A DNA stretch of 64,000 nt, taken from NCBI GenBank assembly GCA_963827955.1, contig CAWHDJ010000018.1, forward strand, positions 1,309,297 through 1,373,296, read 5' to 3'. A program made the position numbers and the translations under genes. A model generated the notes under the pieces. It was not told the DNA's origin and searched no databases. It worked only from the letters and a program-made list of their open reading frames with translations. The DNA is from an uncultured delta proteobacterium (GTDB taxonomy: Bacteria; Myxococcota_A; Polyangia; Polyangiales; Polyangiaceae). Shown piece after piece: positions 3,099-52,345 of the stretch (position 1 is its first letter; every line of letters begins with the position of its first letter).

Positions 3099-3995
3099 CT
3101 ACGCCCCCGCGGCCCCCCCGCAGACGCGGCACCACGGCAGCCGGACCAGCGTGCACAGCTTGGTCTCGAAGGTGACGAGGTCCTCGATCAGGATGCGCCC
3201 CCCGAGCATCGACCGCGTGTAGCCGGAGACGATCTTGACGACCTCCGTCGCGACCAGGTGACCGAGGAGCCGCGCCATGATCGCGGTCCGCGCGCCGTGC
3301 GCCGTGCGCTCGCCGAGCGGCGGGTTGAGCGCCTCGGCCGACGCGCAGATCCGGCAGGCCGTCCTGCCCGGCACCGTGAGCGGCCCGATCACGGCGCGGG
3401 CCCCGTCGAGGTGCGACCAGAGCGTGCGGACGCCCGCGCGGTGCGCGATGCTCGCGACGCGGCCCGCCTCGGCCACGTCCTCCGGGGCCAGCGCGGGGAT
3501 GAGGAGGCTCGTCCCGGCGTCGATCTTCCCCTCCGCGAGCCGGTCGATCGCGCCGATGCCCGCCGCGCGGAGCTCCGCGACCGCGACGTCGCCCCAGGGC
3601 TCGTACCCGGCCAGGAGCAGGCGCGCGGAGGCGAGCCGCTCCAGGGCCGCCGAGGGAGCGACCGACCAGCGCTGGAGGAACTCCAGTTGCCCGCGGCGGC
3701 TCTCGTCACGATCGTGGTCCGTCACCTCCTCGACGAGCCCGCGCTCCACGAGCCGATCGAGGAAGCGCGATACGCTCTCGGGCGCGTAGCCGGAGAGCGC
3801 CGCGATCACGGCGCCGCGATCGCGCGACCCGTCGAGGAGCGGCACGATCCGCGCCAGGAACGCCTGGGCGTCGGCGCCCGCGACCTGGAAGGTGCCGAGG
3901 TCGGACCGGACGATGACACCGGCCGACGTGGTGGTGACGCTCGCGGAGCTCCGGAGGAGGATGGGTGTCACGGGCGCGCCTCCTCGTCTGCGGGC
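3099..3995 (-). CDS. E1-like (ThiF/MoeB-fold, Ocin-ThiF-like) RiPP partner protein with N-terminal RRE-like extension
   Basis: C-terminal ~300 aa of ORF 3099..4736(-). Rossmann motif LLLAGYEPWGDVAVAELRAAGIGAI, a CRIC...CRVCGG Cys pair at the C-terminus, and a ~140-aa N-terminal domain (MRRTARRR...). It is a paralogue of the E1 domain at 6150-6838. The N-terminus appears in-frame with sagB only because the sagB C-terminus is frameshifted; the true start is probably near 3995. Confidence 0.6.
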   Translation of the reverse strand, partial: ARRRGGAPVTPILLRSSASVTTTSAGVIVRSDLGTFQVAGADAQAFLARIVPLLDGSRDRGAVIAALSGYAPESVSRFLDRLVERGLVEEVTDHDRDESRRGQLEFLQRWSVAPSAALERLASARLLLAGYEPWGDVAVAELRAAGIGAIDRLAEGKIDAGTSLLIPALAPEDVAEAGRVASIAHRAGVRTLWSHLDGARAVIGPLTVPGRTACRICASAEALNPPLGERTAHGARTAIMARLLGHLVATEVVKIVSGYTRSMLGGRILIEDLVTFETKLCTLVRLPWCRVCGGAAGA

Positions 3996-4736
3996 TGTCC
4001 GACGCATACGACGTAGAACGGCTCCTCGTCCTCCGGCAGTTGCAGGAGGGCGCCGAGCTTCCCGATCGTAGAATCCGCCGATCGCGGTCGGTCCGAGCCC
4101 GATCGCCGTGGAGACGAGGTAGATGTTCTGGCCGACGTGCCCGGCGTCGAGGAAGAGGTGCCGATAGCCACGCTGGCCGTACTTCCACATCGTCCGCTCC
4201 CGGATCGCCGTGATCACGACCACCACGTTCGCGTGGCGGGCGACCTCCTGATCCACCAGGAGATCGACCAGGATCGGCTGCGCGAGCCCAGGGACGACGT
4301 GCTCCAGCGCGTGGTCGCGCGCGTCGTAGTGGTAGATGCCGTCGGCGAGCCCCTCCACGGCCTGCGTCGCGACGTAGAGCTCGAGCGGATAACGCCCGCC
4401 GGCCGAGGGCGCCGGCCGGCGGAACCCCTCCTCGCCCGGCCCGCCCCGCGTGACGCGGACGCCGTACGACGCGTACAGGAGGCGCCCGAGCGTCGGGAGG
4501 GGCATGGGCCGGAGCGTGTAGTTGCGGACCGAGCGCCTCCGCTCGAGCGCGGCGCCGAGCGGCATGTCAATCGCGAAGTCCCTCCCGGGCAAGGCCGTGC
4601 GCGCGGCGCCGGGGTAGGTGCGGAGCTGCGCGGGCTGCCGGTCGAGGTCCATGATCGGCGCGATGATGCGCGCGCGCTCGTGAGAGGAGTGTGTGTGGAA
4701 GAGCCGGGCGACGTCCGCCTCGGTACGCGTTGCCAT
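3966..4736 (-). CDS. SagB-type (McbC-like) FMN-dependent azoline dehydrogenase; apparent frameshift near 4050
   Basis: The N-terminal 230 aa of ORF 3099..4736 carry nitroreductase/SagB motifs (RRSVRNYT, GGRYPLELYV, YHYDARDHAL, YRHLFLDAGHVGQNIYL). The conserved C-terminus IGKLGALLQLPEDEEPFYVVCVGQPADEEARP* is in another frame (ORF 3968..4171(-)). The frame switch falls at the GGFYD|IGKL junction. Confidence 0.75.
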
Positions 4737-4745
4737 CGCTTTGCC

Positions 4746-6838
4746 TCAGGCCATGGGGTGGGGATCGGGGTTGATGCCGCGGGAGGCCATCGCCGAGAGG
4801 CGCGGGTTGCCGAGCCGCTCGAGGCCATGGCCGAAGTGGATCTGCTGGAAGCGCGCGCCGAGGGCGCGGGCCACCCGGATCGGCGTGCCGGCGGAGATCC
4901 GGCGATGTCACGTCGACGATGGCGACGCGGAGCCCCGCGGCGGCGAGGCGCCTGCACAGCACGTCGGACGTGACGGCCTCGGGCTCGGGCAGATCGGCGG
5001 CCGCGACCTCGCCGCCTGCGCCCAGGAAGGCGAGCGCCCCCACGCGGTGCTTCGGCACGTAGTAGAGGGCATGGTCTTCGAGCGTCTGCACGTCCTCGGG
5101 ACGCTGCGGGATGGTCCGCTTTCCCTCCGCGACGAGCCGGCACATCCAGGGCCCGAGGTGGCCCTGCTCGAGCAGCGCCCGCGCGATGGCGGTGCGCGGC
5201 CGGAGGTGCGCGGCCATGGACACCGTGGCGCCGGGCCACCCCTCGCCGTCGCCGTACCCGACGCAGATCACGACGGGGATCCCCGCCCCCACCTCGAGCA
5301 GGTACAGCTCGACCCGCGTCCCGCGCTCCTCAATCTGGCGCGCCGCCTCGCGGGCCGCGGCGTCGACCGTCCGGTCGAGGAGCACGCGCCGCCCCGGGCG
5401 CCGCGTCAGCCACGCGATCATGAAGGCGTCGCGCTCGCAGAGCTCCAGCGCGGCCGAGAGCGCGGCGCGGTCGAGCGTCGGCCCGGCGGCCAGGCCGTTC
5501 GAGGTCACGTCGCAGAAGCGCGCTTCCGGGGTGACGGGGAAGCTCATGTAGGTGGGCAGCGCGGGGACCATCACGGGAGCGCGCGAGTCGAGCCAGAAGC
5601 CGCGCACCCAGTCGATCGTCGTGTACGGAGAGAGGCGCGCGAACGGGAAGCCCGGCTGGGCATACTGGCGGTCGCTGTAGAGGCCGAGATCCTGCGGAGA
5701 GAGGAAGTCGCCCTCCATCTCGGCCACGGCGGCGCGGAGCAACGAAGGGTGGTGGAAGCGGCTCGCCGAGTAACGCTCGACCGCCTCGCCCACGGCGCTC
5801 ACCAGGGCGCGCAGCGCGGTGGTGCCCTTGCCGGAGCCCAGCTCGGGGCCGGCGCAGCACGCCGGCACATCGCCCTCTGCCACGCGCGAGAGGACCGCGG
5901 AGGCCGCGATCGGTACGTCCGGCTCCAGCGGGGACGCCGCCGCGCGGACGACGAGGCCCCGGACGATGCCGGTGCGTCGATCCACGACGCCGGCCAGCAT
6001 GCGCCGCAGCTCCTCCGGATCGCGCGCTCGGTCCATGTCCTCGCCGTTGCCCTCGGGCGCGGCGGCGCCGAAGTGGTACGCCCCGCCGCAGACCGAGCAG
6101 TGCGGCATGCGCAGCACGGCGTGGAAGCTCCGCCTCCATCGTGACCAGGTTCTGGACGCAGAGCCGGCCGAGGAGGGGATGGGATCCGGGGCGCGCGAGC
6201 AGGTCGAGCACCGAGAGCGCGAGGGCATGTCCGAGCAGGGCGGGCATGGACGCGAGGTAGGTGCGGGCACGGGCGCGCGGCCGATCGGAGAGCCACGCGG
6301 CGTGGAGGGCGTGTTCGAGATCGAAGCTCGCGCTGGCGGCGAGGCGCCGGAGGCGACAGCACTCCCAGCACGCCGTCTTTCCCGGCACGACCGCCGGCCC
6401 GACGACCGCGTCGAGGCCGTCGAGGTGGGCGCCGATCGAGGCGAGAGAGGCCCGCTCGGCGAAGCGTGCGACGCTTTGCAGCGCGTGCAGATCGTCGCCC
6501 GGCAGCGCGGCGACGATCAGGTCCCAGCGCGCGTCGGGAAGGGCGAGGGAGCGATCCTGGTCGATCGCCAGCGGCCCCGCGGTGACGACACAGCGTGGCG
6601 CGGCCTCTGCCAGCGACGCGCGGAGCGCCTCCGCGCGCCCTCGCCCGAGGTCCTCTTCGCCGAAGAGGCGGGCATACGCCCGATCGTCGGCGGTGACCTC
6701 CCGGTCGTCGAGGATGTGGAGCGCGCCGAGCCCCGCCGCGGCGAGGTCGGTGGCTGCGACGGCTCCCCATGGCTCGACGCCGCAGAGGAGGACACGCGCG
6801 TGAGAGAACCTTGATTCGATGGACGATGACGTGGACAC
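4746..6838 (-). CDS. E1-like-YcaO fused azoline cyclodehydratase (PatD/TruD-like architecture); two apparent frameshifts
   Basis: The E1-like Rossmann domain lies in ORF 5330..6838(-): ARVLLCGVEPWGAVAATDLAAAGLGALHILD and GKTACWECC, running to ...LVTMEAEL. The sequence continues in the ORF 4567..6270 frame as HAVLRMPHCSVCGG... followed by the YcaO domain (GSGKGTTALRALVSAVGEAVERYSA, ...DRAALSAALELCERDAFMIAW). The YcaO C-terminal consensus GTPIRVARALGARFQQIHFGHGLERLGNPRL...NPDPHPMA* lies in a third frame. Frame switches are near 6140 and 4885. GTG start at 6838. Confidence 0.75.
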
Positions 6839-6940: not shown

Positions 6941-7168
6941 TCAATGGCAGCCCTCGCAGCGGAAGCAGCGGAAGCAGCCCTCGCAGCGGAAGCAGCCCTC
7001 GCAGCGATGGCAGCCCTCGCAGTGATGGCAGCCCTCGCAGCGGAAGAAATGGGCCGTGGGCAGGTCTTCCGACTCCCCCCCGGCGATGGCCCGGATCGCG
7101 TCGCGGACTTCGTTCAATGACAGATGGAGATCGTCGACCTCCACGGTGGATCTGGTCGTATCGTTCAT
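6941..7168 (-). CDS. RiPP precursor peptide: 42-aa leader + Cys-rich repeat core (RCEGC[H/F])n
   Basis: The ATG at 7168 is preceded by the SD-like tgggggg. The 75-aa product is MNDTTRSTVEVDDLHLSLNEVRDAIRAIAGGESEDLPTAHFF-RCEGCHHCEGCHRCEGCFRCEGCFRCFRCEGCH*. It has 11 Cys in 33 residues. It sits directly upstream of the YcaO/E1/SagB genes on the same strand. The core is encoded by an 18-bp DNA tandem repeat. Confidence 0.8.
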   Translation of the reverse strand: MNDTTRSTVEVDDLHLSLNEVRDAIRAIAGGESEDLPTAHFFRCEGCHHCEGCHRCEGCFRCEGCFRCFRCEGCH

Positions 7169-7405
7169 GGTGCCCCCCACGCGGACACATGGGGCCCGCT
7201 GCCTGGCCCGCAAGCCGTCGCGGGCGCCGCTTCGAGTGTCCGGGGGGCCGGGGACCGCCCTCGTCTCCGCCGCGTACCCGCGTGCGCCGGCTTACCGATC
7301 CACCGCTTTCCTGCGCCGCGGCGTGAGCCGGAGCTCACGCTCGACGTTGATTGGGCGAGGCCCGCCCGATACGCCGTACCGACCTCTTTTCTCGCAAAGG
7401 ATGTC

Positions 7406-8787
7406 ATGTCGGTCACGTCGGCTTCGCGCTTGTCCATCCTCCTCGGCTTCCTCGCCCTCGGCTGCGCGGAGCGCCCCCTCTCCGCCGAAGAGACGATGTC
7501 GTCGAGCGGCCCCGCCATCCACTTCGTGACCGGCGCCGGGGAGGTCACGCGCACCTTCCTTCCCGAGCAGGTCGACGTGAAGCTCACCGGCCTCCCGCCG
7601 GCGAGCCGCGTGACCCTGCGCGCGTCGATGCCCGGCTTCGCGTCGCACGCGACCTTCGTCGCCGACGCGGCGGGCGCGGTCGACGTCGCCGCGCAGGCGC
7701 CCGAGGAGGGCACCTACGAGGGCGCCGACGCGGAGGGGCTGTTCTGGTCGATGCTCTCGACGGGCGCGGCTTCGGCCGGCGAGCCGGAGCACATCGACGT
7801 CGACGTGCGCGCCGAGCTCGAAGGAAAGGTGGTCGCGACCGCCACGCTGGCGCGGGACGACACCGCTCCCGGCGTCGTCGAGACGCCCGTCCATGACGAC
7901 GGCCTCGTCGCCGTCCTCGTCACGCCGGCGGCGCCGGGCCCGCACCCCGCGCTGCTCACGTTCGGCGGATCGGAGGGCGGCATCGACTGGGGCCGGAAGG
8001 CGGCGCGGCTCTACGCCTCCCTCGGCTACACCTGCCTCGGCCTTGCGTACTTCGGCGCGCCGGGGCTGCCGCAGCACCTCGAGGATCTCCCGCTGGAGTA
8101 CTTCGGCAAGGCGCTCGCATGGCTGAAGCAGCGCCCCGAGGTGAAGGCCGACGCCATCGGCGTCATGGGCGTCTCTCGCGGCGGCGAGCTGGCGCTCCTC
8201 CTCGGCGCCCACTTCCCGGACGTGAAGGCGGTCGTCGCCCAGGTGCCGAGCGGCGTGGTCTGGCCGGGCTGGGATCCGGACCAGGCGGAGAACAACACGG
8301 GATCGTGGACGCTGGGCGGAAAGGAGCTCTCCTACGTGAAGCCGAGCGACACACCGCCGAAGTTCACCCGCGACGGCAAGGGACATGAGATTCGAGCACG
8401 ACACCCCCATGTTCACGGGCGCGCTCGCCGCCGCCTCGACGGCGGATCTCGACGCCGCGACCACGCCCATCGAGCTCGTGAAGGGCCCCGTGCTCCTGCT
8501 CGCTTCGGCCGACGATCAGATTCTGGCCCTCGTGCCGGCTCGCCGGCATCGCGATGGACCGCCTCCAGAAGACCGGGCACGCGGACGCCTTCGCCGACGA
8601 CTTCGTCTGCTACCCGGAGGCAGGGCACATCACGGGCACGCCCGGCCTGCCGACCACGGGGCTGCCCCTCCTCGAGAGCCACGCGCACTCCTTCATCGCG
8701 ATCGGTGGCACACCCGCGGGCATCGCCCGCGCGGCGCGCGACGAATTCGAGAAGAAGCGCGCTTTCCTCGCGGCCGCGCTCCAGTGA
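7406..8787 (+). CDS. secreted BAAT/acyl-CoA thioester hydrolase family protein (two apparent frameshifts)
   Basis: Signal peptide MSVTSASRLSILLGFLALGCA. BAAT_C motifs LTFGGSEGG and GVMGVSRGGELALLLG (Ser nucleophile). The continuation is in ORF 8385..8870 (GPVLLLASADDQIL) and ORF 8554..8787 (CYPEAGHITGTPGLP...KRAFLAAALQ*). Confidence 0.7.
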
Positions 8788-8802
8788 GGGGCGGGCCCCG
8801 CA

Positions 8803-10158
8803 TCAGCGCCCGTCGACGAAGGTCTCGTACTTGCCGTTCGCCTGCCGCGGGATCGGGGCAGGCCCGGTGAACCTCAGCCGGAAGGGGTGGCCGAGCGCCT
8901 CCTGGATCCGCGCGCCGCTCGCCTGCTCCTCCTCGGGGCCCAGATCGCGCTCGCGCGTGAACCGCACCTCCATCGCGTCCGGCCCCTGCTGGATGACCTG
9001 AATCCACTCCACGTCGGGGATCGCGGCCCACAGCGCGCCCACGTCCGGCCACGCCCGGCGCCCGTCCGGCAGCGTGACCAAGTTTCGCCGCCGGCCGAGG
9101 AGCCGCTCGATCACCGGCAGCCCGCGCCCGCACGGGCAAGGCGCGCCCACCTCCGCGTAGTCTCCGATGGCGTACCGGATGAGCGGCATGGCGAAGTTGT
9201 GCAGGCTCGTCAGCACCACACGCCCGATCTCGCCGGGCCGCGCGGGTAGCCCCTCCTCGTCGAGGATCTCGACGAGGACCGATTCGGACTGCACGTGGTA
9301 GTGCTCGTGCCGCGGGCACTGGAGCGCGACGAAGCCCAGCTCCTCGCAGGAGTACACGTCGCGCACCGGCACGCCCCACGCCTCGCGGCAGGCCTCGCGT
9401 ACGTCCGGAGTCAGAGGCTCTCCGTACGTGTGTACGGCCCGGAGGCCGGGCAGGCGGATCTTCTCTCGCTGCGCGTACCGGGCGAGGGCGCGGGTGTTGC
9501 TGGGATACGAAAGGAGGTAGTGCGGGCGCCGGGCCTCGATCACCTCCATTTGCCGAGGGATCGGCATGAGATGATAGAGCACCGTCACCGGGCCCGTCTT
9601 GCAGACCACCGGCGACATGAGCCCCCAGCTCGGTAGATCCTGGACGGCGAGCGGGTCCGGCGCGTAGCGCCCGGAGCGGATGGCGACGAGCCGCCCGTCG
9701 AGATCTCGCTCGTGCCAGAGGTCGTCGCGGAGCGCGAGGGTCCGCCAGAACAGGCCGGTCACCTCCGTGCACACCACCTCGAGGGGCTCGCCCGTGGATC
9801 CCGAGGTCTTGTTCCGGTACGTCCTGCCGTGCGCGAGCGGGACGGCCCGGCTCTGGATCTCGTCGTGGTGCTCCCGGATGTCCTGCTTCGTGAGCAGGGG
9901 AATCCGCCGCCACGCATCCTTCGTCACGGGCCCATGTCCGTCGCAGCCGGCGGCCGCGAGCCGGCCCCCGTACCACGGCACGGTCGACGAAGCGTGCTCG
10001 AGGAGCTTCGCGAGCTGCCGAAGCTGGCGAGCCTCGATCTGCTCGGCAGGCAACCACTGGCTGCGTTCGAGCTGGAACTCCATGGAGAGGAGCGTCGAGT
10101 CCTCTCCCGTCACGATGGCAGGCCAGACGACCTCGGGGATACACGACCAGAGATTCAT
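8803..10158 (-). CDS. phenylacetate-CoA ligase (PaaK)/F390-synthetase family adenylate-forming enzyme
   Basis: C-terminal 451 aa of ORF 8803..11340(-), starting at ATG 10158 (MNLWSCIPEV). AMP-binding motif TSGSTGEP. It is in-frame with the upstream TetR region only because there is no stop codon between them. Confidence 0.8.
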   Translation of the reverse strand: MNLWSCIPEVVWPAIVTGEDSTLLSMEFQLERSQWLPAEQIEARQLRQLAKLLEHASSTVPWYGGRLAAAGCDGHGPVTKDAWRRIPLLTKQDIREHHDEIQSRAVPLAHGRTYRNKTSGSTGEPLEVVCTEVTGLFWRTLALRDDLWHERDLDGRLVAIRSGRYAPDPLAVQDLPSWGLMSPVVCKTGPVTVLYHLMPIPRQMEVIEARRPHYLLSYPSNTRALARYAQREKIRLPGLRAVHTYGEPLTPDVREACREAWGVPVRDVYSCEELGFVALQCPRHEHYHVQSESVLVEILDEEGLPARPGEIGRVVLTSLHNFAMPLIRYAIGDYAEVGAPCPCGRGLPVIERLLGRRRNLVTLPDGRRAWPDVGALWAAIPDVEWIQVIQQGPDAMEVRFTRERDLGPEEEQASGARIQEALGHPFRLRFTGPAPIPRQANGKYETFVDGR

Positions 10159-10283: not shown

Positions 10284-11091
10284 TCAGCCCGAACGGCGCC
10301 GAGAGGTCGTGGGGCCCGCTCCGCGGGCCCGGGGTCCAGGGCTCGCTTGCGAGCCCGCCTGGCGAGGCGGGCCGCTTGCGGCCCCATCGTGACCGGTGCG
10401 CTCGGCGATGGGCTGCGCCGCGACGCCCGTGGCTCGGGTGACCGCGTCGTAGAGCACGAGCTTCAAGAGCTCCACCAGCTCCGCCTTCCCCACGTCGCGC
10501 CGTGCCACCCAGTCGATCGACGTCGCCTCCACGAACCCGATCCACCCGCGCAGCGCGATCCGCACGAGCGGCCCCGGGAAGCTCGGTGGGCATCCCCTCG
10601 AAGATGCGCTCCGCGAACGTGCTGCGCGTCTCCTCCAGGATGGCGGCGACCTCGGGATCCGAGCCGATGCCCCCGCGCATCAGCGCCACGTACGCCTTGC
10701 CGTGCCGCTCCACGAAGGCGAGGTACGTCCCGAGCCCGCGCCGCAGCCGCTCGTCCGGCGTCCCCGGGAGGACCATCGTCGTGTCCTCGAGGAGCCGCTT
10801 CGCCGCGTGCTCGAGCGCGGCCACGTAGAGGTCCCGCTTCGTCGGGAAGTAGTGGTAGAGCAGGCCCTTGGAGACGCCGGCCGCGCGCGCCAGGTCGTCA
10901 ATCGACACCTCGTCGTACGATCGCTCGCTGAACATGGCGAGCCCGAGCGAGAGGAGCTGGGCGCGGCGCTCGTCCACGTCGAGCCGCGCCCGCGGACCGC
11001 CTCCGCTCCTCTCCGGCGGGCGCTGCGAGGCGGGCTTCGCCGCCTCCCGCGTTCGCGGGCGGGGCGGCGGCGAGGACGCGCGTCGGGCCAT
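10284..11091 (-). CDS. TetR/AcrR family transcriptional regulator (apparent frameshift near 10560)
   Basis: The HTH VSIDDLARAAGVSKGLLYHYFPTKRDLY lies in ORF 8803..11340 from the M at 11091. The ligand-domain tail LRGWIGFVEATSIDWVARRDVGKAELVELLKLVLYDAVT lies in ORF 10284..10565(-). Confidence 0.7.
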
Positions 11092-12052: not shown

Positions 12053-12620
12053 ATGCAGCGCCATCACGTCGCCATCATCGGCGCAGGCTTCGGCGGCATC
12101 GGCATGGCCATCCGCCTGAAGCAGGCGGGCTTTCACGACTTCACGCTGATCGAGAAGGACGACGGCGTGGGTGGCACCTGGCGGGCGAACCGCTATCCCG
12201 GCGCCGCGTGCGACATCGAGTCGCACCTGTACTCGTTCTCGTTCGAGCCCAACCCCCGCTGGTCGCGCACCTACGCGCCGCAGCGCGAGATCCTCGCGTA
12301 CCTGGAGCACTGCGCCGACGCGTACGGCATCCGCCCGCACCTCCGCGAGAAGACGTGCGTCACGTCCGCCACCTTCGACGAGCGCCGCGGCCTCTGGACG
12401 CTCGAGACGACCGGCGGCCCCGTGCAGGCGCGCGTCGTCGTCTTCGCCACCGGCGGCCTCAGCCGCCCGTCGGTCCCCGACATGCCCGGCCTCGAGACCT
12501 TCGCCGGCAAGACGTTCCACTCCGCGCGCTGGGACCACGACTTCCCGCTCGCGGGCAAGACCGTCGCCGTCATCGGCACGGGCGCGAGCGCCATCCAGTA
12601 CCGGACGGCGAGCGGCAAGA
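12053..12620 (+). pseudogene. flavin-containing/Baeyer-Villiger monooxygenase, N-terminal fragment only
   Basis: FAD motif IIGAGFGGIG and NADPH motif VIGTGASAIQ. The homology ends after ~190 codons and no continuation appears in any frame. The expected ~350 C-terminal residues are absent before the convergent esterase gene. Confidence 0.5.
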
Positions 12621-12755
12621 ACACCACGCTCTGGCCGGGCTTCACCTTCGAGTTCCGCCTGCGCACGCGCCGGTTCGACGCGGAGCGCTACGATCTGGTG
12701 CCCGATCGCGGGGAGGCCGATCGCGACGTGGGGCGGAGTCGCGTCGAGGCGGGGA

Positions 12756-14054
12756 CTAGGAGTGTGGATTCGCCCGCATGAACCCGAGCATCTCCGGCTC
12801 GTGGTCCACCCCGCCCTTGTCGTCGAGCCCGTCCGGCCAGCGCAGGTGGTTCGTCGTCCCGGTGACGAGCCCGCACGTCGACGCGCAGCTCGTCACCGGC
12901 ATCCCGTTGTCGTCGATGATGACATCCTGCACCGTCGAATCGCCGACGCCCGTCGCGCTCGTCAGCGTCGCCCTCCAGTCCTCCACGTCGTTCCCGGGCG
13001 GAAGCGAGCCGAGCTGAGCCGCGTCGCAGGGGACCAGCGCGTCGCACGATCGGTGGATGAGGAAGATCGGCGCCTCGGACTTCGGGTAAGGCATGAGCTG
13101 GCAGGGCAGGCTCGCCTCCGGCGTGTTGAACGGGTCCGCGCCCGCATACACCGCCGCGGCCGCGACGCGCGCGCCGCCCGGCGTCGCGGTCGTGAGGCGC
13201 GCCATCGCGTACATCTGGGCGAAGAAGGCGCCGTTGGACCAGCCCGTCACGTAGATCTGCGTGGGATCCACGTCCCCTTTGGCGACCAGCGTGTCGATCA
13301 GGTGATCGAGGCTGCGGACGTCGGGGTTCTCGCTCGGGCTCGCGAGGTCGCGGTAGAAGTAGTCGTGGTGCGGCCCGCCGGGGTTCGGCCCGAGCCAGTG
13401 AAGGTTGCGCCCCTGCACCGCCGCCACGATGAAGCCCGTGCGCGACGCGTCGGTGGAGAGCTGGAAGGTGTCCGACTTGGCGCGGAGCAGGGTGTAGTCG
13501 TAGAGGTCCTGCGCGCCGCCGTGGCTCCCGTGGAGGAAGACGACGAGGGGCAGCTTCGCGGCGCTGCTCGCGCCGCTCGGCGTGTGAACGCACGCGTAGC
13601 GCTGGTCACCGTTGGTGTCGTTCCAGGTGAGCGGCGCCCCATCGTCGAACATCGGATGGTCCGAAATCTTGGAGGTCGCGCACGTCGGCGGGTCGATCTC
13701 CGTGGTGACTTGCTTGGAGGCGGAGGTGAGGCCGGGGCACGCGTTCTCTGTGGTGCAGACGAGGAGCGGCCCGCACGCGCCCGTCTGCGGGTTGCACGTG
13801 GGCGCGCACGCAACGGGCCCAGTCGCCGAGCCCCCGCTCCCCGTGCTCGCGCTCGTACTCGTACTCGTGCCCGCGCTCGCGCTCGCGCTCGTAGTCGTGC
13901 TCGCGCTCGTAGTCGTGCTCGCGCTCGTACTCGTGCCCGTGCTCAATCCGCCGGGCCCGGACGAAGTGGTCGTGCCCGTGCCACCCCCGCAGCACACGAG
14001 CGCGAGCGCAGCAGCGCTCTCCACAAACACAAGAAGACGAGACGCGGTATGCAT
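12756..14054 (-). CDS. secreted esterase, PHB-depolymerase-like (Esterase_PHB) lipoprotein with Ser/Thr-rich linker
   Basis: ATG at 14054 (MHTASRLLVFVESAAALALVCCGG lipobox). S/T-rich linker. GWSNGA nucleophile elbow and LVVFLHGSHGG. Confidence 0.7.
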   Translation of the reverse strand: MHTASRLLVFVESAAALALVCCGGGTGTTTSSGPGGLSTGTSTSASTTTSASTTTSASASAGTSTSTSASTGSGGSATGPVACAPTCNPQTGACGPLLVCTTENACPGLTSASKQVTTEIDPPTCATSKISDHPMFDDGAPLTWNDTNGDQRYACVHTPSGASSAAKLPLVVFLHGSHGGAQDLYDYTLLRAKSDTFQLSTDASRTGFIVAAVQGRNLHWLGPNPGGPHHDYFYRDLASPSENPDVRSLDHLIDTLVAKGDVDPTQIYVTGWSNGAFFAQMYAMARLTTATPGGARVAAAAVYAGADPFNTPEASLPCQLMPYPKSEAPIFLIHRSCDALVPCDAAQLGSLPPGNDVEDWRATLTSATGVGDSTVQDVIIDDNGMPVTSCASTCGLVTGTTNHLRWPDGLDDKGGVDHEPEMLGFMRANPHS

Positions 14055-26773: not shown

Positions 26774-29192
26774 TCACTGGACGTTGCAGACGAGATCGGT
26801 GCCAGGCGTCGAGCCGCACACGGTGGTGACGACGGTCGACTTGGTGATCGCGATCTGCGTCTCCGTGTCGCCCGACGCGTTCGGGATCTGGATCGCGGGC
26901 ATCGTGAAGGTCGCGGTCTTGTAGTTCGTCGAGCTGAACGTGGCGGTCCCGAGCATCTGGTTCCACGTCTGGAACGAGTCTCCCAGCTCTGCGGCCGGAA
27001 CCTGACCACAGATGAGGCCGCTGCCGGTGCACGCGATGTTGCCCCACTGGTTGAATCCCGTCGCACATCCGACGCCCATCGCGGCTCGACCGTTGGTGTA
27101 GCTCCAGCTCGTCATTCCGTTCGGCACCGGCGTACAAGCGCCCCAGGTGAGCGTCGTCCCCGCCAGCGTTCCGCTCGCGTTGTCCACGCACGGTCGGGAG
27201 ATGGTCGGCTTGACGTTCGTGCACGCGGTGCCGCCGGCCCCGCAGTTGGCGGTGCCGGCGGCGAGCATGCCGAGGCTCGCGTCGACGCCGACGACGAGCG
27301 TCCCCGTCTGGCCGAGCACGGTGACCGCTTGCGAGAAGTAGATCGGGAGGTACTGCTCGACGAGGTAGACGGGGCCTGCCGTCGGGGTCCCCGTCGCGTC
27401 GTTCGTGAAGCGGAGGCGCAGCATGCCCTGGGTGAAGGTCGCGGTGGTGAACGGCGAAGTGTCGCCTGCTCCCGTGAACTTCGGAGTGTTCGGGTGCGTG
27501 GCGCCGACGTTCTCCGTGACGTTGGCCGCCGCGATGGGGGCTTGCGAATCGCGAACGTGCCCGAGATGTGGTACACGACGTCGGTGTACGTCCCGCACGA
27601 GGACGACGTACACGTCGGCGCCGCGCTCCACGTCCCCGAGGCCCCGCAGGTCGGATCGCCGCCCTTCTTGGTGTAGCCCGTGTTGCACGTGTACGCCGCG
27701 GTCGCGCCGAAGGTGTCCGTGCTCCCGCCGCCGTCGCCCCCGCTCACCGTCGGCGCGCCTGCGTTGGTCACGGTCGGCGGAGCGCCGCAGTTGATCGGCG
27801 CGCAGGTCGGCGCCTGCCCCCACGTGCCGTTGGCGCCGCACGTCGGGTCGGCGCCGTTCAGGGTGTAGCCGGTGTTGCACGTGTACGCCGCGGTCGCGCC
27901 GAAGGTGTCCGTGCTCCCGCCGCCGTCGCCGCCGCTCACCGTGGGCGCGCCCGCGTTGGTCACCGCCGGCGGAGCGCCGCAGCTCACCGGCGCGCACGTG
28001 GGCGCGGGCCCGGTGAACATCCCGTCGGCCTGGCAGGTCGCCATCGCGGTCCCCATCAGCGTGTAGCCGCTGTTGCAGCTATACGTCACCGTGTTGCCGA
28101 ACGTGGCCGTCGGCGCCGAGACGGAGCCGTTGGCCGGCGCCGTCGCTCCCGAGCACGTCACGGGGGTGCTGCAGTTGGTGCCGGTCCAGCCCGGGTCGCA
28201 CGTGCCGCACGTGTAGCCGGTGCCGCCGACCGGCATGCAGCCCGTCATGCTGTGTACGCACGGGTCCGGCGTGCAGCCGGTCATGATCTGGGTGCAGGTC
28301 GGCGCCGTGCCGCTCCACGTCCCGTCCGCCTGGCAGGTCTGCGTCGCGTTGCCGGTGAGCGCATAGCCGCCGTTGCAACTATAGGTCGCGACGGTCCCGG
28401 TGGTGCCCATCGTCGGCGTGACGCTGCCGTTGGCCGGCGGAACGAGGTTGGGCGTGCAGGGGCTGGGCGCGCAGGTCGGCGCGGGGGTGGCGAACGTCCC
28501 GTCCGACTGGCAGTCCGAAACGGCGGTGCCATTGAGCGTGTAGCCCATGTCGCAGGCGTAGGTCACCGAGTTGCCGAACGTGGCGCTCGACGAGGAGACC
28601 GTGCCGTTGGCCGGCGCGACGGCGCCGGTGCACGAGACCGGCACGTCGCAGTTGGTGCCCATCCAGCCCGGGTCGCACGTGCCGCACGTGTACCCGGTCG
28701 CGCCCATCGTCATGCATCCGGTCATGCTGTTCACGCACGGATCGGGGGTGCACGCCGTGTTCGTCGTCCCGCTGGAGCTCGAGCTGGCGCTCGTGGTGGA
28801 GCTGGCGCTCGTGGTGGAGCTCGCGCTCGCGCCGCCGGCCCCGCTCGAGCTGCTGGCCGCGCCGCCCGCCCCGCCGCCACCGCTGCTCGACGAGGTGGCG
28901 CTGCCCCCGGTCCCGCCGGCGCCGCTGCTCGACGAGGTGGTGCTGCCCCCGGCTCCGCTGGAGCTGGTCGACGAGGTGGCCGCGCCCCGGCTCCGCTGGA
29001 GCTGCTCGACGAGGTGGCCTTTCCGGTGCCGCTGGAGCTGGTCGACGAGGTGGCCGTGCCGCCGGTGCCGCCCGCGCCCCCGCTGCCGGTGGCCGTGGTG
29101 ATGGTCGAGGAACCACAGCCTGCGGCCACGAGGCCCAGCGCGACGATGGGGAGCGCCGCGGAGCGGTGCGGAGACGAAGAGCGCATGTTCAT
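26774..29192 (-). CDS. large lipoprotein with EGF-like and Sushi/CCP domain repeats (two apparent frameshifts)
   Basis: Lipoprotein signal MNMRSSSPHRSAALPIVALGLVAAGC (ATG ~29192; ORF 28731..29282) plus an S/T/G linker. About 5 Sushi-like units (C..P....NG.V......G..V.Y.C..GY.L.G...C...G.W.G..P.C) interleave with EGF-like CDPGW(M/T)GTNC (ORF 27112..28734). The C-terminal domain is in ORF 26774..27997. Confidence 0.65.
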
Positions 29193-29949: not shown

Positions 29950-30047
29950 CTGGTTTCCTCCTCGAGTTCTTGCCTGTGGCGAATCGAGGTTACGCGTGAC
30001 GGCCTGGAAGGCAACAACCTCATCGAGCCGTAGCGTATCCTGCCGCG

Positions 30048-31117
30048 GTGAAGCCCCTCTGCGAGATGCCGCACCCAGCGCGCCTCCACCACGCGTTGTT
30101 CCTCGCCGTCGCCTTCGTCCTCTGCGCCTGCGGCGTGACGCTGCCGCACAACCTGGTGATGCGCGACGTCGGCTTCCCGCTCGGGGACCTCCGCTTTCCC
30201 TCGGGTTTGCGCGTGATCGTCGACGAGGACCATCGCGCGCCGGTGGTGGGGGTCTTCCTCCTCGTGGGCGCAGGCTCGACCAGCGACCCGAAAGGGAAGG
30301 AGGGGCTCGCCCACTACGTCGAGCACCTCGCGTTCCAGGCGCGGCCCGATGGAAGACGTCCATCTCGAGCCTCCTCGAGCGCGCGGGGGCGGCTTCGTTC
30401 AACGCCTCCACGGGCCTCGACTACACGATCTACTGGGAGCTGGGGCCGAAAGAGGCGCTCGCCCCGCTGGTGACGCTCGAAGGCGTGCGCTTGACGTCGG
30501 CCGTCGCCAACGTCACGCCCGAGGTCGCGGCCGTCGAGCGGGAGGTGGTGCGCAACGAGCTCAGGGAGCAGAATGAGACGGGGATCTACGGTTCGATCTT
30601 CAGCTACCTGCAGGCGGCCGTCTTCCCCGCAGGCCACCCGTACGCGCGGCCCGTCATCGGCAACCACGAGAGCCTCTCCTCCCTGACGCTCCAGGACGCG
30701 CAGCGCTTCGTCGCGGCAAGCTACCGGCCGGAGAACGTGACCCTCGTGATCGTCGGCGACGTCGATCTGCAGGCGGTGCAGCCGGTCGTGGAGCGGAGCT
30801 GGCCGCCCGAGCTGCTCGCCGGCGCGGCGGCGCACCCAGCAGCGCCGCGGATCAGCGACGTACCGCCGGAGCCGCCGGAGCCGCCCCCGGCGATCCTGGC
30901 GCGCGACCAGGAGGCCGTCGCCGCGCCCGAGCTGTGGATCGGCTGGTCGCTGCCGCGCAGCTTCCGCGGCGAGGGGTCCCTCGCTCCTTTCCTGGCGGCG
31001 GTGACGCAGAACGCGCTCTCGAACGGGCTCTGGCACGACGACGACATCGGGGCGATCCAAGTCCGCCTCGTCGAAGGCGCGGAGGCGTCGATGCTCCTCT
31101 GCCGCGTCGAGCCCTGA
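30048..31117 (+). CDS. M16-family (pitrilysin/insulinase-like) zinc peptidase, unit 1 (apparent frameshift near 30360)
   Basis: Signal peptide and inverted zinc motif HYVEHLAF (HxxEH) in ORF 30048..30473. The rest of the M16/M16_C domains are in ORF 29828..31117 (NETGIYGS..., RFVAASYRPENVTLVIVGDVD). Confidence 0.65.
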
Positions 31118-31150
31118 ACGCGGCGCGGCCCGAGCGGTCCCTCGATCCGC

Positions 31151-32790
<1,640 letters not shown>

Positions 32791-34150: not shown

Positions 34151-34380
34151 GACCGGGCCGCCGTGTCGAGGCACCGGGGCGACGACCGCCGTGCGGCCCC
34201 TTGCATACGCTGTGCGCCCGGTCTCCTGGCGGGCTCGAGATGGCTGAAATTCCTGGCGGTTCACCACGGCTCGACGAGCCCCCACGGGCTTGACCCGAGC
34301 AGGGTTTCTAGCACGGGGAGGGGTGAAGCCTGCGCGACGCTCGCGGTTGATTTACAATGTGCTCGCACATCGTCGAGCCC

Positions 34381-37300: not shown

Positions 37301-38081
37301 CGACCTCGCCCGGCGCGACCTCGACGAAGCCCTAACCCTCGCCACCCGAAATGGCTTCCCCCTCTTCGAAGCCGACGCCCACCTCGGCCTCGCCCGCCTT
37401 TACCTCGCCGAGGGCAATCCCGCCGCCGCCCGCGAGCACCTCGACCGCGCGCGAACGATCGTCGACGCCATCGGCTACCACCGCCGCGACCGCGAGCTGG
37501 CCGAGCTGGACGCCGCCTGCCCGGCGCCTCTCCAGGCGGTCGACCTCTTCGTGATCCTCAAGCTCGCCGCCCTGAGAGACCCATCGGCGCCGGCGTCCAT
37601 CGTGGCGGAGCAGACCGGGCTCTCGAACGACGCGGTCGCGCTGTCCCTGCACAGGCTCGGGGCGATGGGGCTCTTGAAGGAGGAGGGGGAGCACCGGCGG
37701 ATCAACAAGCTCGCGCTTCGCAAATGTCTCGAGGACGCCGTCCGCTGGATCGCGCCGGCGGAGCTGGGGGGGCTGGAGGTCGGCCTCCCCACGGCGCACT
37801 CGGCGCCCCCGCTGGCGGCGAAGCTGATCGGCGACGACGACCCCATGGTGATCCCGCTCCCGCAAGGTCCGGCGCGAGGGCGCGCGGTCACGCCCTTGCA
37901 CCCCCTCGCACCCGGGGCCGCAGCGCGCGATCCCAAGCTCTACGCGTTGCTCGCCCTCGTGGACGCCCTCCGCATCGGCGGGGCGAGGGAGCGCGAAGTT
38001 GCGGCGAAGGAGCTCGGGCACATCTATGAGGGGCGCGGAGCACATCCGGGCGATCCGCGCGGTGGTCGCGGCGTTCGGTGA
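34381..38081 (+). CDS. STAND NTPase: N-terminal nucleoside-phosphorylase (PNP_UDP_1)-like domain + NB-ARC P-loop ATPase + TPR array (apparent frameshifts near 35300 and 36620)
   Basis: PNP-like domain (IGIVVALPEE...IGIAGS...IEMESAAV) in ORF 34357..35529. NB-ARC motifs GGMGKSSL (Walker A), LLVLDGVE (Walker B) and GLALTLLGSY (GLPL) in ORF 35186..36655. TPR-like helical repeats in ORF 36438..38081. The C-terminal ~170 aa may be a separate wHTH gene. Confidence 0.7.
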
Positions 38082-40583: not shown

Positions 40584-40895
40584 CCCGGCGCGTGCTAGAC
40601 GCGAAGCGCGAGGCGTCAAGGCTGGGTAGGTGGCTCGCGTGAGGCACGCGCAGTCCTGACCGCGTGCGCCAGGGATTACGCTTCATCCAGCGTCGCGTGG
40701 AACCGGGGCGAGCTGTCCAACCTCGGTGGGGTTGCTGCGCCGTTTCTCGGAACCGTCGCGCGCGAGCCCGCCATCTGCGGTCATCGACCGGAGGATGTGG
40801 CCCGGGCCGCGGCTCCAGCACCTCGCGTTGACGCGCAAGGCGCGCTCCTCTAGCCCTTGTAACCCTGGGGGTCTGCCCCGGAGGAGCGGCCGCGC

Positions 40896-43819
40896 ATGGA
40901 GACGAATCGACCGTACGACGACTTCGAAGAGTTTGCGGGCCTCCAGACCGTGCTCGAGCTCGAATCGCATCCGCTGGGAGGAGGTCCCTCCGTGGATCAA
41001 GGATCCGGGCTTGCTCGACCCGGAGGTGGCCTTCAAGGACGGCTTCGTCGAGCCGCTCGCGTACGAGTACCACCCCGCGCTCCTCTCGCCCGTGAAGGAC
41101 TGGGAGAAAGAGACGCTGAAGCTCCAGACCGGCGCAAGCGTGGTCGAGTTCGCGCCCGACGGGGCCTTCACGCCGAATCGAGCCGCCGCCCGGGATCTAC
41201 TGCGTCGTGAACGGGACCTTCAAGCTCGTGGTCACCCACGCGGGGCGCCGGCGGGTGGTGTCCGCGTGCGGCAGAGGGTGCCTGCTCGGGCTGCCGCGCC
41301 TCCTGCGCATGTACCACGCCAGGCTCGGGGTCGACGCGCCCTGGCCCAGGGACACGCGGGTGGAGGCCGTGGCGCTCGGAGGGACGCCCCCGAGCTCCGC
41401 TTCATGCCGCTGGAGAGCGCGTTCTACTTGATGAAGACGCGGCGCGATTTCCGCCGCTTCGTCGCCAACAACGTGGCGGTCCGCTTCGTCCACCACCGCC
41501 GCATCATGGAGGTCGTCCGCAGGAACTACGTCCTCCGCTACCTCCCTCCCGAGAGCCTCGAGTACGTGCTCCAGTTCGGCGCGCTCCGTCGCTTCGACGT
41601 CCTCTCGGAGTCGGACGGCGAGGCGCTCTCGCAGAACGTGCGCTACCTCGCGGCCGGCAGGCGCGCGAACCGGGGAGCCTCTGATCCTGGCGGGCCAGGC
41701 GAGCACGCACTTCCCGCGCCCCGAGCCGGAGAAGGACGGCTTGCGCGCCGATGCTCCGGGCCCGTTCGTCGGCGCGGGGTTGCCCGGCCAGCTCGTTGGC
41801 TACGAGAACATCATCACCGACACGGAGCCCACGCGCCGCACCGACATCTACATCACGCAGGGCACGGAGTTCCTCGAGTTCTGCTGGTACGTCATGAAGG
41901 TGGTGGAGAACGGATCGCTGCTCGCGTTCAACCGGGGCTTCCAGGTCATGGCCGGAGAGACGGAGGCCGAGCCCATCGCGCCGGTGGTCAGCTTCCAGGC
42001 CGCGCACCCCGGCCTCAACGTCGTCACGCTGGCCTACGGCGCCGCGGCGTCGCTGGCGCACGACGCGGGGGGCAGCGTCGTCGTCATCGACCTCCAGGGG
42101 ACGGAGAGCTTCATGCGGGCGATCGAGGCCCCCGAGCCCATCAAGGACATCGAGATGCCCGAGCCCGCCGACCCCAACCCTGTCTCCGAGCTCCTCGCGC
42201 GCTGGAACACGACGCTGATGCCGGTCCCCATCGACCAGCGCACGGGGGGCGTCCCCCAGCTCGTGGTCCGCTGGCCCAAGGCGGGGGAGGGCGCGCGCCT
42301 GACGGTCGAGGACGTCCTGCAGACGATCGAGCTGGAGCGCATGGGAAATGGCCCGCGCAGGATCGTGGTCGTCCACGACCCCGCGCCCGGGGACGACCCG
42401 ACGTTCGCCCACGATCTGGCCGAGCGCCTCAACCTCCAGAGCGAGGCCGTCTTCTACGTGGGCGACGACTCCGACGCCAAGTACCACCTCAGCGAGGAGG
42501 AGCCGGACACGCTGACCTGGGTGTTCCGGATGAACCGCGCCTACGTCGAGCGGGAGCGCAAGCACACGGAGAAGCTCGAGGGGGACACGGTCGACAGGCA
42601 CTACACGACGCGCCGGGTCGTCCGCATCCCGGAGGCGCGCAACGATCTCCTCGACGTGCGCACGGAGGAGATCCGCGCGGAGGTCGACGGCATCGACCCC
42701 AGGAACGTGGATCCCTCCCGCATGGCGCGGGCGTTCCAGCCCGAGGTGATCAAGCGGTCACCGCTCGCCCGCGCGTTCCACCGCCTCGCCCGCGTCGTGG
42801 AGCGGCGCACGGTGGGCGTGGCCCTGAGCGGCGGGGGGGCCTGGGGGTTCTGCCACATCCCGCTGCTCATGAAGCTCGAGGCCGAGGGGGTCCCCGTCGA
42901 CTTCGTGACCGGCACGTCGTTCGGCTCCGTGATCGGCGCGATCTACACCGCCGGCGGCACGGCCGCCCTCAAGGCGTTCATCGAGGAGAACTGCATGAAG
43001 CCGGGGGAGTGGCAAGCGGCCCGCCTCACGGGCTCCATCCGCGGCGTGCTCGACAGCGAGCTCACGACGACCATCCTGGGCCTCACCCCAATCGACTCCA
43101 GGTTCCTCGAGCGCTTCATCAACCGAGAGGCGCAGCGCTACGGCACCGGCGGCCCGCCGCTCCTCATGACCACCGAGATCCCCTTCTACCCGGTCGGCAC
43201 CGACCTCGACGGGCTGCACGAGTTCTTCGACGTCCGGAAGAGCCTGGGATGGGGCGTGCGCATGTCGGGCGCCATGCCCCCCATCTATCCCCCGGTGGAG
43301 GTCTCCGTGACGGGGAAGGGCAAGTCGCCTCCCCCTCCGCTGACCGACCCCAGGTACGAGTTCACCTTCCGCGCGAACCCGCCGCGGGCGCGGGACGAGC
43401 ACCACGTCGTCGACGGCGCGTTCATCGCCAACGTCCCTTCCCGCGTCGCGCGCAGCGTCGGCGCAGACTTCGTGATCGCCGCCAACGTCATCCCGCCCAC
43501 CCCGGAGGAGGCGCCGCGCATGGGCGGTATCCTGGGCATGTTCCAGGCGATGTTCGAGACCTTCACGCCGACGGGGCTGCTCCGCCGCGCCGACAATCTG
43601 AACCGCGGCACCTTCCTCCAGACCTGGAAGGGCGGTGACGACCAGGGCCGCATCTGGGCGGAGTACCGGGTGACCCTCCAGCCCCAGGGCTTCCAGTTCT
43701 ACGAGATGTGGCGCGGGCAGGACATCTGCGAGCAGATGGGACACCGAATCGACGTCTACGGCATCCGCGACCTGCGCGAGCGGTGGGAGGCCCTCTCTCC
43801 GGCCCGCCGGGGAGGTTGA
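40896..43819 (+). CDS. cNMP-binding-domain / patatin-like phospholipase (NTE-like; several apparent frameshifts in N-terminal third)
   Basis: The N-terminus (METNRPYDDFEEFAGLQTVLE...) and a cNMP-binding-like segment (FAPDGAFTPNRAA..NGTFKLVVTHAGRRRVVSACGRGCLLG...) are spread over three frames. The patatin domain is intact in ORF 41741..43819: GVALSGGGAWGFCHIPLL, GTSFGSVIGAIY (GxSxG) and VVDGAFIANVP (catalytic Asp). Confidence 0.6.
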
Positions 43820-52237: not shown

Positions 52238-52345
52238 GTGCGCCTCCCCCACGAAGGACGCACGTAAGACTGCGCGCCGGCGCGCGCCAGTCACGCGCGC
52301 TCATTTCCAGGGCGGTGAGCCCGGCTACCCGCCACGCCGCAAGGC

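Follow-up and report, generated by a model that had tools for sequence, protein, structure and literature searches.

We found that three frame breaks interrupt two enzyme genes of a thiazole/oxazole-modified peptide (TOMM) cluster in the 64-kb stretch of DNA analysed here (64,000 nt, called the window below), and that these breaks are very likely consensus indel errors of the assembly and not biology. All three lie on the minus strand, and each amounts to a net gain of one base. The locus itself is an ordinary intact TOMM cluster, heterocycloanthracin-like and conserved across polyangial myxobacteria. Assembly error was judged almost certain because one-base slips are scattered through unrelated genes across the window.

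Gene content of the cluster

The cluster consists of four genes in the order Cys-repeat precursor, fused E1-like/YcaO cyclodehydratase, SagB dehydrogenase, and second E1-like leader-binding protein (table 1). The SagB gene directly adjoins the YcaO gene, starting 10 nt past its stop, and the GTG start of the second E1-like gene overlaps the SagB stop (GTGA). In addition, the second E1-like protein showed weak winged-helix matches at residues 54-86, and it gave a single tblastn match to the orthologues, in the equivalent position.

The precursor matched the heterocycloanthracin/sonorensin model TIGR03601 only weakly (21.7 bits, below the cut-off of 35). It was thus rejected as a member of TIGR03601, and its likeness to the family lies in the Cys-repeat core and in its position. 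A Cys-repeat precursor was found upstream in the equivalent position at seven of the eight orthologous loci examined. The core of the window's precursor has CEGC repeats with His, Phe, and Arg, whereas the relatives have CGG or CS repeats. Meanwhile, the ORF at 3099..4736 is a chimera that has the appearance of a SagB-E1 fusion.

Table 1. Genes of the TOMM cluster and the three frame breaks, in window coordinates
Feature	Position	Strand	Sequence or product	Remark
Precursor peptide gene, intact	6941..7168	-	MNDTTRSTVEVDDLHLSLNEVRDAIRAIAGGESEDLPTAHFFRCEGCHHCEGCHRCEGCFRCEGCFRCFRCEGCH	ORF; Cys-rich core with CEGC repeats
Fused E1-like (ThiF)/YcaO cyclodehydratase gene	4746..6838	-	corrected product 696 aa	2093 nt = 696 codons, stop, and 2 extra bases
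SagB-type FMN dehydrogenase gene	3968..4736	-	corrected product 255 aa	769 nt = 255 codons, stop, and 1 extra base
Second E1-like/leader-peptide-binding protein, intact	3099..3971	-	290 aa	TIGR03882 43.1 bits, above cut-off
Frame break 1 (SagB)	4055..4067	-	GATCGGGAAGCTC	one extra base among 4058-4063
Frame break 2 (YcaO)	4882..4896	-	CTCCGCCGGCACGCC	extra C at 4893/4894
Frame break 3 (E1-like part of fused gene)	6118..6130	-	GAGCTTCCACGCC	one extra base among 6123-6127

The three frame breaks

An earlier note on this DNA had described three frame breaks in the enzymes of the cluster, each of which restores a conserved C-terminal or junction motif in the alternate frame. The breaks are present, and the motif is restored at all three sites. 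In an independent Viterbi segmentation by codon usage, the frame changed on the same strand at 4067/4068, 4898/4899, and 6127/6128, and profile matches and orthologue alignments (below) support them. The third break, which had been put at ~6140, actually lies at ~6124.

At site 1, the N-terminal frame reads ...GGFYDREARR, and the frame one base later gives ...LGALLQLPEDEEPFYVVCVGQPADEEARP and stops at 3968. At site 2, ...DVTSPDL is followed by Arg/Pro junk, and the next frame reads TPIRVARALGARFQQIHFGH...NPDPHPMA up to the stop at 4746. At site 3, ...LVTMEAEL goes on as HAVLRMPHCSVCGG in the next frame. Past each of the three switches, the 5' frame is free of stops for 330-970 nt. As deposited, the TOMM cyclodehydratase was not found as one uninterrupted frame, and two +1 breaks lie inside its gene.

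Only site 2 could be resolved to the base, as a C doubled to CC. Here CTC GCC GGC ACG has become CTC(C)GCCGGCACG, and a close relative, the soil-metagenome contig L027, reads GGATCTC-GCCGGGACG. The corrected product at this site is DVTSPDLAGTPIRVARA, as compared with DVTSPDLAATPFRVARA in the orthologues. Sites 1 and 3 are most simply explained as A/T doublings inside GAGCTC, with GAT CGG GAG CTC turned into GAT CGG GA(A)G CTC at site 1 and GAG CTC CAC into GAG CT(T)C CAC at site 3.

Effect of correction and comparison with orthologues

When one base was deleted per site, each profile match gained in bits and reached the profile end. For instance, TIGR03604 rose from 218.4 bits (1-323/377) to 240.6 bits (1-377/377) against a cut-off of 219.25, and membership in this family, including the Pro-rich C-terminus with its NPDPHPMA end, was reached only with one base removed at site 2. 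TIGR03882 rose from 31.7 bits (8-100/164) to 57.9 bits (9-164/164; cut-off 36.9); thus, the N-terminal domain fused to YcaO belongs to this family after correction, and the fusion is kept in more than 20 genomes. TIGR03605 rose from 140 bits (2-151/173) to 156.5 bits (2-169/173), both above the cut-off of 78.4. Furthermore, the corrected 696-aa product also matched Pfam YcaO and Pfam ThiF, and corrected SagB matched Pfam Nitroreductase over 2-166/167.

More than 20 loci of Sorangium, Minicystis, and Nannocystis have the three genes in this order. Along its entire length, the corrected fused product shares 57-61% identity with the products of single uninterrupted ORFs in these genera; with metagenome proteins of 679-728 aa the identity is 70-73%. 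A scan of the genome collection gave no copy of the source genome, its top match being 61% identical. Residues 1-255 of corrected SagB share 62-70% identity with orthologues whose genes directly follow the fused gene. The fused gene gave one uninterrupted, nearly full-length match at 21 genome loci and several metagenome loci, and an unbroken SagB adjoins it at each genome locus examined except one that ends at the fused gene. The heterocycloanthracin-type TOMM clusters of Sorangium resemble the window in gene order (TIGR03882 with TIGR03604, TIGR03605, second E1-like), and NCBI annotates a 'TOMM precursor leader peptide-binding protein' and a SagB dehydrogenase there. The enzymes of the relatives are 57-70% identical to those of the window and share the C-terminal ...NPDPHPMA, but the three +1 breaks occur in the window only.

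Orthologous loci had been named in the earlier note as a check on the breaks. We aligned eight orthologues, and no gap fell at any of the three junctions, an agreement far beyond chance. At site 1 the orthologues read GGFYDxEL without a gap, and at site 3 the gap-free alignment reads ...E[AST]x[LFR]H[AVTS][VA]L.MP.C..CGG. In addition, none of the 32 related loci searched shares a frame break at any of the three sites.

Over 1390 nt, L027 is 93% identical to the window, with 95-100% identity in 5256..4257. The 1390-nt alignment contains only two gaps, one for each extra base that the window has at sites 1 and 2. L027 belongs to another strain, with 3-7% divergence, and shows the ancestral state rather than the true state of this genome. 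A near-identical independent sequence was not found for site 3, and the comparison with L027 covers sites 1 and 2. Past site 2, 48 codons are identical to L027 in amino acids (dS 0.07). The YcaO part gave a dN/dS of 0.12 and SagB one of 0.42, and no decay was seen in the coding sequence downstream of the breaks.

Frame breaks elsewhere in the window

We found at least six further one-base frame breaks in four unrelated genes, each spanned by a single Pfam domain: BAAT_C (2), TetR_C_46 (1), Peptidase_M16 (1), and Aldo_ket_red (2). There are nine confirmed one-base breaks in 64 kb. The stitched BAAT protein aligned with six homologues without a gap at either junction. The M16 peptidase, a repeat protein, and a STAND NTPase probably contain further breaks, two of them in the NTPase. 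Confirmed and candidate sites of extra or missing bases outside the cluster are 8389, 8520, 10578, 30335, 32015, 35331, 36590, 51628, and 52057. Each break is a one-base change, with about nine insertions against three or four deletions, and neither in-frame stop codons nor larger indels were seen in the window.

Five genes carry two breaks each. The spacing of the breaks along the sequence showed no significant clustering (P = 0.17), and clustering per gene was marginal (P ~0.015). The disrupted genes are all accessory, and no essential gene in the window is affected. Two same-frame stops crossed by the coding segmentation, at 12040 and 39366, were considered as nonsense mutations and rejected, since both are ordinary gene boundaries: the former lies between Metal_hydrol and an FMO-like protein, and the latter between an unknown protein and a small membrane protein. 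The plus strand after 12700 was searched for a frameshifted extension of the FMO-like ORF and gave no Pfam match.

Sequence context of the extra bases

The earlier note had placed all three sites in short G/C homopolymers. The support for this is weak: only site 1 touches a run of three or more. Such runs are touched by 35% of random 7-nt intervals in the window, which is 72% G+C. Classical homopolymer errors were therefore rejected as the specific cause, since the junction intervals are without long runs and runs of three or more are common background.

In most of the window's insertions, an A or T seems to have been doubled within GAGCTC or GATC. In the zero frame, the junction codon is GAA at site 1 and CTT at site 3, both seldom used beside their synonyms (CTT 27 vs CTC 1138; GAA 58 vs GAG 916). 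Six of the nine insertion sites fall on GAGCTTC/GAAGCTC or GATTC/GAATC, of which the window holds 57, and none of 20000 randomisations reached six, an association that is post hoc, having been spotted after the sites were inspected. A systematic miscalling of GAGCTC was rejected, as the window still has 57 intact GAGCTC sites, and of its 23 GAGCTTC/GAAGCTC sites 20 lie in frame.

Origin of the frame breaks

The preference of the earlier note for indel error over pseudogenisation proved to be the best-supported reading, given the window-wide breaks, L027, and the lack of downstream decay. One-base indels occur in unrelated genes of the same sequence, and the extra bases of sites 1 and 2 are missing from the near-identical independent sequence. 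The consensus caller would have doubled one base per site; the C to CC doubling is shown at site 2, and for sites 1 and 3 we infer A/T doublings in GAG CTC. The organism itself would translate both genes without interruption, and the CEGC-repeat core would become a polyazole peptide. The source seems to be a long-contig assembly, probably made from long reads, and the breaks are probably technical rather than very recent mutations.

Consensus errors of long-read assemblies concentrate in methylation motifs and homopolymers (PMC6591954), and such errors lead to frameshifts and inflated CDS counts (PMC11649196). The window resembles the consensus indel errors and split ORFs of long-read (nanopore/PacBio) assemblies in its one-base indels across unrelated genes, its context bias, its otherwise perfect coding sequence, and its long contig, but it differs in that insertions dominate rather than homopolymer deletions. 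The classic nanopore signature is homopolymer deletion, and the insertion excess does not fit it. The apparent concentration of the extra bases in GAGCTC/GATC hints that base modification may have misled the consensus caller. Meanwhile, the clustering per gene counts against error, because real dead genes would also show it.

Genuine and very recent pseudogenisation, in which one-base insertions hit the cluster together with other accessory genes, is an unlikely explanation. It could have followed from relaxed selection or from a mutator episode, and the cluster would be a dead relic. The breaks do sit in the deposited sequence, only accessory genes are affected, and the five doubly affected genes (P ~0.015) are expected if decay follows a first inactivating change; the truncated FMO-like ORF at 12053..12781 also suggests some real gene loss nearby. 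Interrupted frames and genes affected more than once are likewise seen in the frameshift pseudogenes of decaying genomes. However, the signs of genuine pseudogenes, namely in-frame stops, multi-base deletions, and a raised dN/dS past the breaks, were not seen in the window, and the 48 codons past site 2 have kept their amino acids. Bacterial pseudogenes have a deletional bias, opposite to the excess of insertions here (about nine against four). Furthermore, about 8 of 58 genes would have been broken by one-base changes only, and the sequence-context bias suggests a systematic cause. A quite improbable variant is that the insertions are genuine and sequence-specific, the A/T doublings in GAGCTC/GATC palindromes being the scars that a real process has left, for example faulty repair after self-restriction or a mutator that acts in certain contexts.

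Ribosomal +1 frameshifting, programmed or genome-wide, would let the cell make full-length enzymes from the unaltered sequence, but this seems the least credible account. At junctions that read (G/C)AG-(C/A)UU-C, a tRNA bound to CUU or AUU in the P site could slip onto UUC. Four junctions have this pattern in the mRNA sense: site 3 and the TetR junction both have GAG CUU C, and the two BAAT junctions have GAG AUU C and CAG AUU C. Both CUU and AUU are seldom used as codons in this DNA, and a +1 slip at each of the four yields exactly the orthologue-like protein. The CUU-C or AUU-C of these junctions recalls prfB-type programmed frameshifting (CUU UGA C). However, the shift sites are not conserved, as the 32 related loci have no break there and a 97%-identical relative is unbroken through site 2. 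The pattern does not fit sites 1 and 2 and several others, with the motif of site 1 on the antisense strand, and three or four of the breaks are -1. Unlike the prfB site, the window's sites have no in-frame stop to stimulate the shift, and the zero frames continue for 330-970 nt. Moreover, the sites differ in direction and context and are far too numerous for 64 kb, and doubling of the T within CTC and ATC, which are very common codons, gives the same pattern. Tolerance of the breaks through widespread +1 recoding at NUU-C is a less likely version of the reading of the insertions as scars.

Implications for genome mining

Under consensus error, the main value of this case is caution. The cluster should be treated as intact in natural-product mining of the genome, and its split ORFs should not be taken for pseudogenes, novel 'stand-alone' domains, or a SagB-E1 fusion. 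If the breaks were real, this would be a freshly inactivated TOMM cluster, and if the insertions were scars, the process behind them would just have inactivated this cluster along with several further genes of the strain. The whole assembly probably needs polishing. At least one frameshifted product of this assembly, that of the BAAT gene (P0121), is already public in NCBI and ENA, on a contig of 1,783,973 bp.

Frame Breaks in the TOMM Cluster

The four genes of the thiazole/oxazole-modified microcin (TOMM) cluster lie on the minus strand and span 7168 to 3099, in a window with a G+C content of ~72%. An earlier note had proposed three frameshifts in this cluster, and direct reading of the DNA bore out each of them. 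In the SagB gene (4055-4067), ...AIGGFYD is followed by in-frame junk, and the next frame holds ...LGALLQLPEDEEPFYVVCVGQPADEEARP and a stop. In the YcaO part of the fused gene (4882-4896), ...DVTSPDL runs into Arg/Pro junk, and TPIRVARALGARFQQIHFGH...NPDPHPMA and a stop are read one frame on. In the E1-like part (6118-6130), ...LVTMEAEL is carried on one base later as HAVLRMPHCSVCGG. Furthermore, a codon-usage Viterbi segmentation, run blind to these breaks, placed same-strand frame switches at 4067/4068, 4898/4899, and 6127/6128. The 5′ frame remains stop-free for 330-970 nt past each switch.

Because the downstream codons begin one base later at all three sites, each site carries one surplus base. 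With one base deleted per site, the fused protein is 696 aa long and SagB 255 aa, and all three NCBIfam matches gained score and reached the profile end. For TIGR03604 (SagD/YcaO component), the match rose from 218.4 bits (profile 1-323/377), just under the cut-off of 219.25, to 240.6 bits (1-377/377). For TIGR03882 (E1-like leader-binding domain) it rose from 31.7 bits (8-100/164) to 57.9 bits (9-164/164), and for TIGR03605 (SagB-type dehydrogenase) from 140 bits (2-151/173) to 156.5 bits (2-169/173).

Coordinates of the cluster genes, of domains running through frame switches, and of motif-associated insertion sites
Feature	Position	Strand	Remarks
Precursor peptide	6941..7168	-	75 aa, CEGC-repeat core
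Fused E1-like/YcaO gene	6838..4746	-	
SagB-type dehydrogenase gene	4736..3968	-	
Second E1-like leader-binding protein	3971..3099	-	GTG start overlapping SagB stop
BAAT_C, profile 2-208/210	~8389, ~8520	+	two switches, single Pfam domain
TetR_C_46, profile 1-102/109	10581	-	one switch, single Pfam domain
Peptidase_M16, profile 1-122/149	30340	+	one switch, single Pfam domain
Aldo_ket_red, profile 2-289/291	52057, 51628	-	two switches, single Pfam domain
GAGCTTC/GAAGCTC insertion sites	4055, 6124, 10578		
GATTC/GAATC insertion sites	8389, 8519, 36590		

Orthologous Loci and the Closest Relative

In a genome scan limited to one genome per species, the fused gene was recovered uninterrupted and almost full length (57-61% identity) in 21 loci of Sorangium, Minicystis rosea, and Nannocystis bainbridge. 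With a single exception, a locus that stops at the fused gene, all of them continue with SagB and the second E1-like gene. The orthologous SagB proteins are 62-70% identical over residues 1-255. When orthologous loci were compared, as the earlier note had proposed, the corrected proteins aligned gaplessly with eight orthologues across all three junctions, and a Cys-repeat precursor lies upstream in seven of the eight aligned loci. In addition, a protein search found full-length metagenome relatives of the fused protein (679-728 aa, 70-73% identity). Judged by these unbroken orthologues, gapless junctions, and metagenome relatives, the cluster is a conserved and already known kind of TOMM locus, and its state without breaks is the ancestral one.

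The closest relative was a 1728-nt soil-metagenome contig, Ga0134128_10322321 (L027), found by a metagenome scan. It shows 93% identity over 1390 nt with window 5256..3867 (95-100% as far as 4257), and its alignment contains exactly two gap columns, one at the YcaO break and one at the SagB break. At the former, L027 reads GGATCTC-GCCGGGACG and the window GGATCTCCGCCGGCACG. After correction, 166 of the 169 C-terminal residues of YcaO are identical to L027; the 48 codons past the break show one synonymous change and no amino-acid change. Against L027, dN/dS was 0.12 in the YcaO part and 0.42 in SagB. L027 lacks the extra bases, and this alignment indicates that they belong to the window sequence alone and that the coding sequence behind them is undecayed.

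Breaks Elsewhere in the Window

The segmentation of the whole window found many further same-strand switches without a nearby stop. Those in four genes were confirmed when the frames were stitched and a Pfam scan found one domain running through the switch. A BAAT-family acyl-CoA thioesterase lipoprotein gene (7397-8787, +) has two +1 breaks ~130 nt apart, and the stitched protein is gapless at both junctions against six homologues (~70% identity). Its best match, the public protein P0121 (531 aa; in NCBI and ENA, on a 1,783,973-bp contig), is exactly the product of the frameshifted window ORF, including its junk tail. In a TetR-family regulator (10395-10983, -), one +1 break at ~10578 joins it and the downstream AMP-binding (CoA-ligase-like) gene 8803..10140 into an 845-aa ORF. 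A large M16-family peptidase (30042-32790, +) has a -1 break at ~30335 inside its Peptidase_M16 domain, probably with CAGGC in place of CAGGGC, and a probable second one at ~32015 (32017 in the segmentation). The listed 352-aa ORF of an aldo/keto reductase (51236-52294, -) seems intact, yet its middle 143 codons are out of frame through a compensating pair (+1 at ~52057, -1 at ~51628). Two +1 breaks (35331 and ~36590) probably divide a STAND-type protein with PNP_UDP_1 nucleosidase, AAA_16 ATPase, and TPR repeat domains (34357-37700, +) among three frames. A Cys/Thr/Gly-rich repeat protein with TCxxxGxWS...APTC units (26777-28760, -) has a probable candidate -1 break near 27590. In total, the 64 kb contain nine or more confirmed one-base breaks, spread over six genes (~13 breaks with the probable ones); ~9 are insertions and 3-4 are deletions.

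The two same-frame stops that the segmentation crossed were ordinary gene boundaries. Four frame switches also fall within ~700 nt (40726-41670, +) upstream of a patatin-like phospholipase ORF (41741..43819); this region had no Pfam match, and it could hold several further indels or have an unusual composition. A flavin monooxygenase (FMO)-like ORF (12053-12781, +) encodes just the initial 60% of its domain (Pyr_redox_3 2-179/305) before it runs into minus-strand genes that converge on it. The other plus-strand frames showed no continuation, and this may be a genuine truncation.

Sequence Context and Origin of the Breaks

The earlier note had favored sequence error over biology and had placed the breaks in short G/C homopolymers. 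The former is the best-supported interpretation; the homopolymer detail is weak, because only the SagB break touches a run of at least three and 35% of random 7-nt intervals in the window also do so. Instead, six of the nine insertion sites fall on GAGCTTC/GAAGCTC or GATTC/GAATC, which together occur just 57 times in the window (six were reached in none of 20000 randomisations). The sites at 4055 and 10578 have the 12-mer CCGAGCTTCCCG in common. The zero-frame junction codons are rare synonyms (CTT 27 vs CTC 1138, ATT 17 vs ATC 583, GAA 58 vs GAG 916). The simplest reading of this motif, which was spotted post hoc, is A/T doubling inside GAG CTC and GATC.

The cluster breaks are very probably technical errors. 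Several points favor this: the breaks are dense, all of the damage consists of single bases, insertions exceed deletions, the contexts are biased, the contig is long, a 93%-identical relative does not have the extra bases, and the coding sequence behind each break is intact. The very long contigs, such as that of P0121, suggest that the source assembly was built from long reads. Motif-bound consensus errors have been described for long-read assemblies (PMC6591954), and the post hoc association in the window is of the same kind; a link between base modification and miscalled consensus bases may lie behind it. Such indels lead to frameshifts and to inflated CDS counts (PMC11649196).

A genuine, recent inactivation of the cluster by real mutation is unlikely, even though five genes were struck twice (per-gene clustering P ~0.015), the disrupted genes are all accessory, and the truncated FMO-like ORF lies nearby. 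Programmed +1 frameshifting or recoding at the junctions is far less probable still. Four junctions do have a (G/C)AG-(C/A)UU-C pattern in common; however, T doubling in CTC or ATC yields the same pattern, the breaks are absent from every relative, and the junction contexts and shift directions are mixed. The cluster itself is an ordinary representative of a known family, and its frame breaks most likely do not exist in the organism.

Variation among the Orthologous Loci

Precursor leaders resembling each other (...V.ELRNAIDEL...) lie upstream of the orthologous cyclodehydratases (~8600-10050 in loci L001-L023; 6941-7168 in the window). The Cys-repeat cores differ strongly: CS in So ce56, CGG or CGGR elsewhere, and CEGC with His/Phe/Arg in the window. 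Three loci (L004, L017, and L018) have two tandem fused cyclodehydratase genes. The identity to L027 drops from 95-100% to 75-85% in the 3′ end of SagB (window 4257-3857, L027 1000-1728), and the second E1-like genes are no longer alignable. This pattern suggests that a recombination or mosaic boundary may lie within the cluster.
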